A DNA stretch of 2,046 nt from Escherichia coli. Lineage in GTDB: Bacteria; Pseudomonadota; Gammaproteobacteria; Enterobacterales; Enterobacteriaceae. The stretch lies in NCBI RefSeq assembly GCF_036507355.1, contig NZ_AP027885.1; one strand, 5' to 3'. The notes beneath the pieces were generated by a model, which saw only the letters and a list, made by a program, of their open reading frames with translations, was not told the origin of the DNA and did no database searches. Within the stretch, counting starts at the first letter, position 1, and each line of letters starts with the position of its first letter. The translations under genes and the position numbers were made by a program. This document shows positions 1-2,046 of this stretch, in pieces.

Positions 1-1
1 C

Positions 2-403
2 CGTGGCACCCGTAGCCAGGTATCGATCTCACCGGAGGCGCTGGAGCCGCGTGTACTGCGGAAGGGTATTTTCACCAAAGACGTGGAAGATCAGGCAGCC
101 GTAGCCAAACGTTTAAGCCAGGCAGTGAACGATGGCTTTGCAGGAACCGTCGCTATGGCCTCTCAGAGCGCCCAGAATGCAAAAAGAGCGCGCGAGCTAC
201 AGAAGACTATGGATTCGCAGCAGAAACGCCTACAGAGCGTTACAGAGCCTTTTAAGGGGCTTTCCAGAGAGCAGATGACAGAAATCCTGATGATGGCTCA
301 GCGGTTTAAGCAGCAAAACCAGGAGAAGGAGAAACAGCAGCGTGTCGAACGTGAGACACAGCGACAGATGCGATCCCGTGGCATGGGCGGTATGGAGCGT
401 TAG
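2..403 (+). CDS. 3' portion of a CDS whose start lies outside the window; charged coiled-coil-like C-terminal tail; identity unresolved (possibly a relaxase C-terminal domain or another plasmid protein)
   Basis: Frame 2 is open from nt 2 to TAG at 401-403, with no in-frame stop upstream of the track's GTG at 83, so the gene begins beyond the 5' edge. The translation (...AKRARELQKTMDSQQKRLQ...QRFKQQNQEKEKQQRVERETQRQMRSRGMGGMER) is low-complexity and Q/E/K/R-rich. No catalytic motif recognised. Confidence 0.55.
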   Translation, partial: RGTRSQVSISPEALEPRVLRKGIFTKDVEDQAAVAKRLSQAVNDGFAGTVAMASQSAQNAKRARELQKTMDSQQKRLQSVTEPFKGLSREQMTEILMMAQRFKQQNQEKEKQQRVERETQRQMRSRGMGGMER

Positions 404-465: not shown

Positions 466-900
466 TTAGGTTCTGCCGCCCTGTATAACGCTGAGGCCGT
501 TTTTTAGTGCTTTCTTGTGGTTGCTGACAGTACCTTTCCAGCCAAACTGAGGGTTCAGACGGTAACTGTAACTGCGCCCTACTTTTGGGCCTTGAAGAAT
601 CACGGATAGGTCAATTAGCGCCTTAACCGAACGGCTTACATTGGTTTTCTGCATACCTAAAGCGTCGGCAATATCGGCTTGGGCAATTTGGATGTAATTT
701 TCATAATCGAGATCAGCTAACAGCATCATCAAGACTTTGAATTGCTCCCCTGTGAGGGTCTTAGCAAGGATCTTTAAAGCGTCTTGGTTCATAGTGAAAT
801 GCCTCTCAAAAGCTGACTTCTGTTTGGGTCGGATAACTGCGACAAAACTACCTACCTCTTCCCCTGTAGCAGTGTCTATCTGAGTAATTCGGTTACTCAT
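466..900 (-). CDS. 144-aa predicted winged-helix/HTH DNA-binding protein; candidate small plasmid replication initiator (RepL-like) or autoregulatory repressor
   Basis: ATG is the reverse complement of 898-900 and the TAA stop is the reverse complement of 466-468. An RBS GGGAGAG lies 8 nt upstream (rc of 907-913). The protein has an HTH-like segment (GEQFKVLMMLLADLD...IQIAQADIADALGMQKTNVSRSVKALIDLSVI). The gene has lower GC than its flanks. Palindromic repeats sit in its promoter region. The Rep-versus-regulator call is inference. Confidence 0.75.
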   Translation of the reverse strand: MSNRITQIDTATGEEVGSFVAVIRPKQKSAFERHFTMNQDALKILAKTLTGEQFKVLMMLLADLDYENYIQIAQADIADALGMQKTNVSRSVKALIDLSVILQGPKVGRSYSYRLNPQFGWKGTVSNHKKALKNGLSVIQGGRT

Positions 901-1258: not shown

Positions 1259-1382
1259 TTCACCGGATAAAACAGGCTTGGCAGTGGTGGGGGGTGGCGC
1301 GGAGCGACGCCTTCCACCTGCCAGACTGCCGTTGATTTTGACCTTCTGGCAGCTTGCTGCCCGAACGATTTTGCGTAGCAAA

Positions 1383-1413
1383 GTCTAGTGAGTACACTAT
1401 CATCCTGATAGTG
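1383..1413 (+). promoter_or_regulatory. Candidate oriT core / relaxase operator: nested inverted repeats sharing arms, about 70-95 nt upstream of the relaxase start
   Basis: Seen in sequence: TAGTG (1386-1390) - AGTA - CACTA (1395-1399), overlapping the 8-3-8 palindrome CACTATCA (1395-1402) - TCC - TGATAGTG (1406-1413). Alternative hairpins with shared arms are typical of MobV-type oriTs. A possible weak promoter overlaps: -35 TTGCGT (1371-1376), -10 TACACT (1393-1398). The functional assignment is inference. Confidence 0.35.
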
Positions 1414-1468
1414 GCCCGCCGGAGGCATCGCAATGCGATCCCCCGACTGGCTGGATGTACGCCAGAAC

Positions 1469-1480: not shown

Positions 1481-2046
1481 ATGGCGAATTACGCGATAAT
1501 GCGCTGCAAAAAGCTGACGGGAATGGGCAGTGTGGCCAGCGCTTTGCAGCACTGCTACAGGGAGCGTGAGACGCCGAATGCTGACGCTGAACGGACACCA
1601 GAAAACTACTGCTCTGTGTCTCAGTCGGCAGATGAGGCGATGGGAAAGCTGCGGGAGCTGTTGCCGGAAAAACGCCGTAAAGATGCGGTACTGGCTGTTG
1701 AATACGTTATGACGGCAAGCCCTGAGTGGTGGAACGAGGCCACACCGCGGCAGCAGGCGGAGTTTTTCGCCCGTTCTGAGCAATGGCTGGAGAACAAATA
1801 CGGGAAAGATCGCGTTGTGGCGGCGGTGGTTCACAGGGACGAGGCCACCCCGCACCTGTCTGCGTTCGTGGTGCCATTGACGCAGGATGGGCGGCTGTCC
1901 GCGAAAGAGTTTATTGGCGGGCGGTCAAAGATGCGTGACGATCAGAGCACCTACGCTGAATCGGTAAAAAAACTGGGTCTTGAGCGCGGCATCGAGGGAA
2001 GCCGTGCCACGCATCAGACAGTTCAGCACTACTACGAATCGATAAA
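1481..2046 (+). CDS. mob: MobV-family (Mob/Pre, pMV158 MobM-like) plasmid mobilization relaxase, N-terminal relaxase domain; 3'-truncated by the window edge
   Basis: ATG at 1481 is preceded by the RBS. The frame is open through nt 2046 (188 codons, hand-translated, no stop), which is why it is absent from the ORF track. The translation (MANYAIMRCKKLTGMGSVASALQHCYRER...RKDAVLAVEYVMTASPEWW...AAVVHRDEATPHLSAFVVPL...LERGIEGSRATHQTVQHYY) matches, from memory, the conserved MobV blocks: the N-terminal M-x-Y-x-V-x-R-x-Q-K region, an HNER-like motif, the RKDAVL block and the HxDE..PH metal-binding motif. Confidence 0.9.
   Translation, partial: MANYAIMRCKKLTGMGSVASALQHCYRERETPNADAERTPENYCSVSQSADEAMGKLRELLPEKRRKDAVLAVEYVMTASPEWWNEATPRQQAEFFARSEQWLENKYGKDRVVAAVVHRDEATPHLSAFVVPLTQDGRLSAKEFIGGRSKMRDDQSTYAESVKKLGLERGIEGSRATHQTVQHYYESI

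Follow-up and report, generated by a model that had tools for sequence, protein, structure and literature searches.

What is the cluster of inverted repeats that lies a short distance upstream of a MobV relaxase gene in a 2046-base stretch of Escherichia coli DNA (hereafter the window), and if it is an origin of transfer, where are its limits and where would it be nicked? A sequence-only reading of the window had proposed a MOBV-type oriT upstream of the MobV gene and had confined it to positions 1383-1413. The proposal itself has stood, on the shared strand, orthology to pBBR1 and matches of the gene product to the Mob_Pre and MobV profiles. Because the region appears orthologous to that of pBBR1, follows the plan of the pMV158 oriT and precedes a relaxase whose motifs match those of MobM, we consider the plus strand from ~1366 to 1427 to be, very probably, the oriT of a pBBR1-type (MOBV2) mobilization module.

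Complete circular plasmids of 2028-2049 bp from Escherichia, Enterobacter, Klebsiella and others can be aligned with the window from end to end (95-100% identity). The window is therefore itself a whole circular plasmid of ~2.05 kb, opened at an arbitrary point. Consequently, the mobV open reading frame that leaves the window at its end resumes at its beginning (Table 1), and translation confirmed that the frame is open across the junction, giving a product of 322 aa. The only other gene in the window, at 466-900 on the minus strand, encodes a 144-aa winged-helix (wHTH) protein that is labelled in RefSeq as a helix-turn-helix or MarR-family protein, and the MobV relaxase is the sole protein of the mobilization module. 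We place the start of mobV at the ATG at 1481, 88 nt 3′ of the proposed nick and on the same strand as the oriT. An in-frame ATG at 1433, which would give a protein of 338 aa and is chosen in many automatic gene calls, is an unlikely start because the family profiles begin at the methionine encoded at 1481 and pBBR1 has an out-of-frame TTG at the position of the upstream ATG.

The relaxase is readily assigned to its family. Residues 1-185 match Pfam Mob_Pre (4.6e-45), the NCBIfam MobV equivalog model scores 160.9 bits against a cut-off of 100, and the product aligns with the MobM structure 4LVI with an E-value of 2.6e-14. In this last alignment motif I (HxxR) of the window relaxase, H24-C-Y-R27, lies opposite the HNER motif of MobM, and motif III (HxDExxPH), H118-R-D-E-A-T-P-H (HRDEATPH), lies opposite HLDESTPH. 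The histidine of the HNER motif is said, in the 2017 work of Pluta et al., to be the catalytic nucleophile of MobM. The last histidine of the MobM HxDExxPHxH signature is a serine in the window (PHLS versus PHMH), and pBBR1 has PHMT at this point. In gene layout the window resembles pHW126/pIGMS31-type plasmids, which are 2-3 kb in size and likewise combine a wHTH gene of replication type with a MOBV relaxase gene, the REP and MOBV modules of pHW126 and pIGMS31; in such plasmids an oriT has been predicted ~100 bp upstream of mob (PMC2831885; preprint 10.1101/2022.12.05.519187). A large protein search with MobV returned near-identical MobV proteins only and did not reach pBBR1, and no credible match to the whole window was obtained from Rfam.

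Table 1. Coordinates of the mobV gene and of the observed and predicted elements of the oriT region in the window.
Feature	Position	Strand	Basis or comment
MobV relaxase gene, 5′ part	1481..2046	+	Open reading frame leaves the window end and resumes at 1-403
MobV relaxase gene, 3′ part (C-terminal region)	1..403	+	Stop codon 401-403
H0, G+C-rich hairpin TTC.GGCAG-CTTG-CTGCC.GAA	1344..1365	+	ssDNA fold of 1340-1430
H1, upstream hairpin of the predicted oriT	1367..1385	+	Folds of 1370-1425 and 1340-1430; RNAalifold
Predicted nic core CTAGTGAGTA	1385..1394	+	Same in pBBR1; aligned to pMV158
Alternative hairpin TAGTG-AGTA-CACTA of the earlier reading	1386..1399	+	Able to form in the window sequence
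H2, downstream hairpin of the predicted oriT, CACTATCA-TCC-TGATAGTG	1395..1413	+	Repeat search; both ssDNA folds
Conserved block GGCCCGCCGGAGGCA	1413..1427	+	Kept in relatives
Putative mob promoter	1371..1398	+	-35 TTGCGT 1371-1376, 16-nt spacer, -10 TACACT 1393-1398; by eye

[quoted passage not shown] In the pBBR1 sequence (NC_025015.1) the region upstream of mob reads cgACTTTGCgaaGCAAAGTCTAGTGAGTAtACTCAAgcaTTGAGTGGCCCGCCGGAGGCA, and positions 1366-1427 of the window read cgATTTTGCgtaGCAAAGTCTAGTGAGTAcACTATCAtccTGATAGTGGCCCGCCGGAGGCA. The two plasmids agree at 25 of 27 bases over H1 and the core and have the 15-mer AAAGTCTAGTGAGTA in common; the core CTAGTGAGTA is the same in both, and so are the last 17 bases, GTGGCCCGCCGGAGGCA. 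In both plasmids the oriT is on the coding strand of mob and precedes the gene by ~87-88 nt, with a hairpin directly 3′ of the core. The H1 of pBBR1 is GACTTTGC-gaa-GCAAAGTC, and a single C-to-T change turns one of its C-G pairs into a T.G pair in the window. The H2 stems, by comparison, differ in sequence (CACTATCA/TGATAGTG in the window versus ACTCAA/TTGAGT in pBBR1). Identity between the two Mob proteins is 67% in the first 190 aa and 51% over the whole length, the C-terminal half being poorly conserved. The replicons are different, with the wHTH protein in the window and Rep in pBBR1, and BLASTP detected no similarity between these two proteins. On this alignment we regard ~1366-1427 as orthologous to the pBBR1 region upstream of mob. 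The nic site of pBBR1 has been reported to be identical to that of pMV158 (PMC4981023), and the position used here for the pBBR1 nick is second-hand and by alignment. A predicted MOBV2 oriT contains TAGTGAGT (PMC3606827), and a full-text literature search for the core sequence returned no match.

The likeness to pMV158 extends to the context of the nick. The oriT of that plasmid is given as ACTTTATGAATATAAAGTATAGTGTG/TTATACTTTA, or in a longer form as GCACACACTTTATGAATATAAAGTATAGTGTG/TTATACTTTA (PMC3105389), and its counterpart in the window is ATTTTGCGTAGCAAAGTCTAGTGAG/TACACTATCA. The minimal substrate bound by the MobM relaxase domain consists of the IR1 hairpin and the 8 nt between it and the nick (PMC3105389); in both plasmids the right arm of a hairpin ends in AAAGT and is followed by 8 nt and then by the nick, which in the window is predicted to fall after GTGnG. 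The immediate contexts are CTAGTGAG/TA in the window and ATAGTGTG/TT in pMV158, with AAAGTnTAGTGnG common to both. The sequence-only reading had equated TAGTGAG/TA with the GTGTG/TT of pMV158, and the alignment, with its equal spacing after the hairpin, agrees. We therefore predict a nick on the plus strand between G1392 and T1393, where T1393 would become the relaxase-bound 5′ end, and H1 would be the counterpart of IR1 and the hairpin recognised by the relaxase. In both systems, moreover, the relaxase belongs to the Mob_Pre fold family, with HxxR and HxDExxPH motifs, and the oriT lies upstream of its gene on the same strand.

The two origins are not built alike throughout. In pMV158 three repeats (IR1, IR2 and IR3) overlap and the nick lies in the loop of IR2, whereas in the window separate hairpins stand on either side of the predicted nick and no counterpart of IR3 was seen. 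The pMV158-like organisation proposed earlier holds for the hairpin, the 8-nt spacing and the nick context; its nested, IR2-like pairing has found no support in the comparison of relatives described below. MOBV oriTs typically contain an inverted repeat of 8 bp with 3 bp between its arms (PMC3632715). More distant MOBV plasmids, for example Haemophilus pLFS5, which has ACTTTGCTTGCAAAGTATAATGAGCTATAC, appear to bridge the window and pMV158 sequences. The Pre (“plasmid recombination enzyme”) proteins of the staphylococcal plasmids pT181 and pE194, which act at RSA sites, are members of the same Mob_Pre family, and the RSA sites are of the same kind as the proposed oriT, a kind of site at which relaxases can also carry out site-specific recombination.

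Taken by itself the window makes a poor case for the repeats. The three elements that had been listed, TAGTG at 1386-1390, CACTATCA at 1395-1402 and TGATAGTG at 1406-1413, were located exactly, and a repeat search showed that the latter two are perfectly complementary arms of 8 bp, 3 nt apart, and make up the only perfect inverted repeat of at least 8 bp with a loop of 3-8 nt in the window. However, 17% of 500 dinucleotide-preserving shuffles hold at least one such repeat, and the single-stranded DNA fold of 1370-1425 has a z-score of only -2.18, with 4 of 200 shuffles folding equally well. From the window sequence alone the inverted repeats are barely above chance and statistically unremarkable. 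It is on the evidence of its relatives, and not on single-sequence statistics, that we regard the element as real.

Relatives were gathered by two routes. A sensitive BLAST search with positions 1340-1485 against 72,556 plasmids gave 244 records, and in remote plasmids the alignable part was restricted to 1365/1370-1427 of the window. When 100,044 species genomes were scanned for exact occurrences of the 15-mer AAAGTCTAGTGAGTA, 105 stretches were obtained, which brought the core matches to 116 after pooling with earlier loci; most of the new ones were chance hits without hairpins, and the 35 matches with an upstream hairpin, representing 29 distinct sequences, were kept. Several of the organism labels on short contigs, for example Flagellimonas, Arthrobacter and Mycobacterium, suggest contamination or carry-over, and we gave them no weight. 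The comparison set finally comprised 25-26 distinct sequences; in the N-terminal domain, their Mob proteins share 57-100% identity with the Mob of the window. A mobV gene lies directly downstream in each of the loci that were retrieved and annotated, and the distance from the predicted nick to the mob ATG in relatives is about 60-91 nt.

The core 15-mer is invariant by construction in loci retrieved with that exact pattern, but it is also kept in all 10 of 10 loci that are free of the motif constraint, namely pBBR1 and nine BLAST-derived loci. At the other end of the region, the block GGCCCGCCGGAGGCA is unchanged in pBBR1 and in relatives from enterobacteria and Vibrio (L001, L002, L005-L009) and slightly altered in Klebsiella aerogenes, Aeromonas and Bartonella loci. 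It contains a mini-hairpin, GCC-GGA-GGC at 1418-1426, that covaries, being AGC..GCT in a Pseudomonas group and ACC..GGT in others, and the block is possibly part of the Mob-bound region or of the mob leader. The conserved unit runs from ~1366 to 1427, or from ~1344 if the additional upstream hairpin H0 is counted. The span of 1383-1413 first proposed lies inside this unit but is too narrow; it misses H1, most of which falls outside it.

Covariation singles out two hairpins in this unit. RNAalifold, applied to 25 distinct sequences, returned H1 and H2 and nothing else, with H1 as 1369-1374 paired with 1378-1383 (extending to 1367-1385 in the window's own fold) and H2 as 1395-1401 paired with 1407-1413. 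Over the 25 relatives 92.9% of the H1 and H2 cells are paired, compared with 79.9% in shuffles; double-change cells number 41 versus 13, and the covariation score is 0.381 versus 0.161, a value reached by none of 500 shuffles. Control structures slid by 1-3 columns were 34-47% paired. The covariation for H1 and H2 is strong, although palindrome covariation alone does not distinguish a hairpin of single-stranded or cruciform DNA from a two-fold symmetric site that co-evolves with a protein.

The two hairpins vary in different ways. In the window H1 has 8 bp, including one T.G pair (1369-1383), with arms GATTTTGC (1367-1374) and GCAAAGTC (1378-1385) and a GTA loop. It is 97.3% paired across the relatives, with a compensatory G-C to A-T change at one pair (in 7 sequences) and a C-G to T-A change at another, and 9 of the 25 sequences have T.G pairs within it. 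H2, which in the window has 8 bp and starts 2 nt after the predicted nick, shows changes on both sides at 5 of 7 pairs, so that pairing is kept while the stem sequence differs. At least ten different stems occur, among them CACTTC/GAAGTG, CTCTTTG/CAAAGAG, CACTCAA/TTGAGTG, CACTTG/CAAGTG, CACCA/TGGTG and TACTATT/AATAGTA, as well as CTCTTG, ACTTCT and the CACTATCA of the window. A stem of at least 6 bp is found at the H2 position in 23 of 26 loci and in 0.8% of shuffles. These comparisons suggest that H2 is constrained in structure and not in sequence. Even close relatives can differ in the H2 stem; locus L008, for example, combines the flanks of L002 and L007 with the H2 of L005 and L006.

The alternative hairpin implied by the sequence-only reading pairs TAGTG (1386-1390) with CACTA (1395-1399) as a 5-bp stem around an AGTA loop. 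It shares CACTA with H2, and the predicted nick would sit in its loop, as in IR2 of pMV158. Across the 25 relatives, however, it is 80.8% paired, compensatory changes are absent, and in 16 relatives the outer pair cannot form. Such a hairpin is possible but is not supported by the comparison, in which the structures that appear to be conserved are H1 and H2, separate hairpins on either side of the nick core. Further upstream, most relatives have a G+C-rich hairpin of differing sequence at the position of H0, with a stem of at least 5 bp in 21 of 26 distinct loci, a figure inflated by relatedness, compared with 18.5% of shuffled segments. H0 may be an accessory element of the oriT region.

The same bases may also serve the expression of mob. 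TTGCGT and TACACT, separated by 16 nt, make a weak promoter match that falls below the threshold of our consensus scan, which found no plus-strand promoter in 900-1500. At the same place pBBR1 has TTGCGA, 16 nt and TATACT, so that the -10-like hexamer is TACACT in the window and TATACT in pBBR1. By analogy, a mob promoter likely overlaps H1, the nick core and H2. The Mob protein of pBBR1 autoregulates by repressing its own promoter, which overlaps the oriT (PMC4981023), and we infer from pBBR1 that mob of the window may be autoregulated in the same manner.

Homology to MobM of pMV158 and Mob of pBBR1 suggests how the element might work; nicking, the position of the nick and the mobilization of this plasmid are all proposed on that footing. 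The relaxase would recognise H1 (1367-1385) together with single-stranded CTAGTGAG on the plus strand, cut between G1392 and T1393, and stay attached to the 5′ end at T1393. The secretion system of a co-resident conjugative plasmid would then export the relaxase with the bound plus strand in the 5′ to 3′ direction; with this polarity H2 and the mob gene would enter the recipient first and H1 and the nick core last, to be recognised again for rejoining. Our best guess for H2 is that its extrusion, together with that of H1, probably helps to open and expose the 10-nt A+T-rich core, or else that H2 is part of the Mob-bound region. Binding of the relaxase would probably also repress mob, because the likely promoter overlaps H1, the nick core and H2.

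A more specific proposal, which we put forward tentatively and regard as rather doubtful, is that the geometry of pBBR1-type oriTs differs from that of pMV158, with two and up to four separate hairpins (H0, H1, H2 and 1418-1426) bracketing the 10-nt core, and with H2 acting as a structural clamp or a leading-end signal. The point of difference from the overlapping repeats of pMV158 would be hairpins constrained in structure only, flanking the predicted nick. If H2 were a clamp, the nick would be exposed in a bubble of single-stranded DNA; the other possibility is that H2 serves as a signal on the leading 5′ end once this has reached the recipient, and not as a site that the relaxase recognises by sequence.

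An explanation of the palindromes as a mob operator and promoter only, bound by a dimeric regulator and with no part in nicking, has some evidence in its favour. The H2 palindrome overlaps the weak -35 and -10 hexamers, a symmetric operator also predicts palindrome covariation, and autoregulation at this place has been reported for pBBR1. Nonetheless we think it very unlikely, since the invariant core lacks symmetry and agrees with the pMV158 nick context at every base and in its 8-nt spacing from the hairpin, and the T.G pairs in H1 suit a plus-strand hairpin better than a duplex operator. In pBBR1, furthermore, the region is reported as an oriT as well as a promoter (PMC4981023), and the two roles are not mutually exclusive.

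Less probable still is that the plasmid's own replication protein nicks the block as its rolling-circle double-strand origin; this protein would be the wHTH protein at 466-900, resembling the Reps of pHW126/pIGMS31-type plasmids. The two-gene layout of the window is that of pHW126-like plasmids, for which a wHTH Rep with nicking (relaxase) activity and an origin with conserved hairpins have been reported (preprint 10.1101/2022.12.05.519187). However, the block follows mobV and not the wHTH Rep, being present in pBBR1 with its dissimilar Rep, on a 185-kb Vibrio plasmid and in many other backgrounds. The mapped Rep nick of pIGMS31 lies within the REP module beside iteron-like repeats (preprint 10.1101/2022.12.05.519187), and the repeats nearest the candidate rep gene of the window are at 925-963, ~400 bp away. 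We also considered cross-talk between replication and transfer through the similarity of TATCA-N4-TGATA in these repeats (925-963, wHTH operator repeats) to TATCA-N3-TGATA in H2, and rejected it because the same H2 occurs in plasmids that lack repeats of the 925-963 type. It is equally hard to credit that H2 is a terminator or attenuator hairpin, given that a terminator scan was negative at 1395-1413 and that the stem is A+T-rich and followed by GCCCGCC, with no T run, or that the repeats are functionless chance matches. Chance would be compatible with the frequency of single 8-bp inverted repeats in shuffled windows and with the modest z-score of the fold, but is ruled out by the compensatory changes in 25 relatives and by the strict conservation of the flanking core.

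Much of this was known already, as the mechanism proposed is shared with pBBR1 and pMV158, both studied for many years, and the plasmid family is annotated as MobV-bearing and mobilizable. As an apparent orthologue of the characterized pBBR1 oriT, the element described here adds little beyond annotation. On a practical level, its value is to annotators, for whom it locates the transfer origin in 2-kb cryptic plasmids of a very common family. The window is matched by more than 200 plasmid records (Escherichia, Klebsiella, Salmonella, Enterobacter and others), and the gene tables of the plasmids examined, which list protein-coding genes only, have no oriT entry. The same oriT-mob cassette is found on unrelated replicons, including large conjugative plasmids, and this spread bears on the prediction of which small plasmids are mobilizable. 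The Vibrio plasmid of 185 kb that carries the oriT block is of MOBH type, and the block was also present on contigs assigned to Pseudomonas, Aeromonas and Bartonella. One contig (locus L067) holds two copies of the oriT.

The G-rich ribosome-binding site of mob, the MobV relaxase gene, is complementary to a C-tract ~30 nt upstream, and several relatives carry longer complementary stretches of differing sequence in their mob leaders, such as CTGCCCC/GGGGCAG in pBBR1 (NC_025015.1), the closest characterized relative, and CCCCTCT/AGAGGGG in the Aeromonas locus L004. The retention of complementarity by different sequences suggests that a stem in the leader masks the ribosome-binding site and could thereby govern mob translation. 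This leader belongs to a start codon at 1481. A second Shine-Dalgarno-like motif precedes an in-frame ATG at 1433, and MobV is therefore 338 aa long in many automatic gene calls. Since MobV family profiles begin at the Met of 1481, and since pBBR1 has an out-of-frame TTG at the position equivalent to 1433, we consider 1481 the more likely start of mob.

Features of the plasmid outside the oriT hairpins H1 and H2, with their coordinates
Feature	Position	Remarks
Two perfect 18-bp direct repeats, GTTATCAATAATGATAAC	925-942 and 946-963 (within 907-981)	Upstream of the winged-helix (wHTH) gene
Non-coding stretch, CCGCTTCCTCG...TCGCTGCGCT...TGCGGCGAGCGG...TCAAAG	about 1090-1260	
Perfect 10-bp inverted repeat, TCGTCAAGGG/CCCTTGACGA	1217-1258	Within the non-coding stretch
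G+C-rich hairpin GGCAG-CTTG-CTGCC	1344-1365	TTC/GAA on its flanks; a few bases upstream of H1
Conserved block, GGCCCGCCGGAGGCA	1413-1427	Directly after H2
Mini-hairpin GCC-GGA-GGC	1418-1426	Inside the conserved block
Shine-Dalgarno-like GGAGG	1421-1425	Strong; 7 nt ahead of in-frame ATG 1433
mob-leader stem	1441-1444 with 1472-1475	RNAalifold prediction, 15 relatives
mob Shine-Dalgarno GAGGGGG	1469-1475	Start ATG 1481

On the 3′ side of H2, the oriT hairpin downstream of the predicted nick, the conserved block is shared without change by pBBR1, the enterobacterial relatives and those from Vibrio, and shows minor differences at the loci from Klebsiella aerogenes, Aeromonas and Bartonella. The mini-hairpin that it contains covaries: its arms read AGC..GCT in the Pseudomonas group, and other relatives have ACC..GGT. 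At the opposite end, ahead of H1, the hairpin upstream of the nick, relatives possess a G+C-rich hairpin at the equivalent place with a different sequence, and this hairpin may belong to oriT as an accessory element. H2 itself appears to be exchangeable in an otherwise similar background, because one relative locus (L008; CP057614.1) has oriT flanks like those of L002 and L007 but shares its H2 stem (CTCTTTG/CAAAGAG, not CACTTC/GAAGTG) with L005 and L006.

The non-coding stretch at about 1090-1260 appears to resemble the single-strand initiation (primosome assembly) region of ColE1/pUC. An ssi element of this kind has been reported on pHW126-like plasmids (10.1101/2022.12.05.519187).

Each of the direct repeats upstream of the wHTH gene (466-900, minus strand) is a palindrome in its own right, and together they overlap a minus-strand site (TTATCA, 16 nt, TATCAT), the sole promoter-like match that was called between 900 and 1500. 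The repeats probably serve the wHTH protein as its operator or binding sites, similar to those described for RepM of pIGMS31 (10.1101/2022.12.05.519187). The repeats also have half-sites in common with H2 (TATCA-N4-TGATA at 927-961 and TATCA-N3-TGATA at 1398-1410, respectively), a likeness that looks coincidental, as an identical H2 is found in plasmids that lack these repeats.

The 3164 bp MAG contig JAEWSH010000127.1 carries two direct oriT copies, at positions 235 and 2694 (2459 bp apart), whose H2 loops differ (TCT and TCC) and whose MobV copies are 95% and 99% identical to that of the plasmid studied here; either the joining of two related plasmids into a co-integrate or an artefact of assembly could account for this contig. 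Near-identical copies of the present enterobacterial plasmid oriT were also found on very short genome contigs (L038, L044, L056, L082, L089 and others) labelled Flagellimonas, Allomuricauda, Arthrobacter and Mycobacterium, which most likely reflect contamination or carry-over in these assemblies rather than true hosts.
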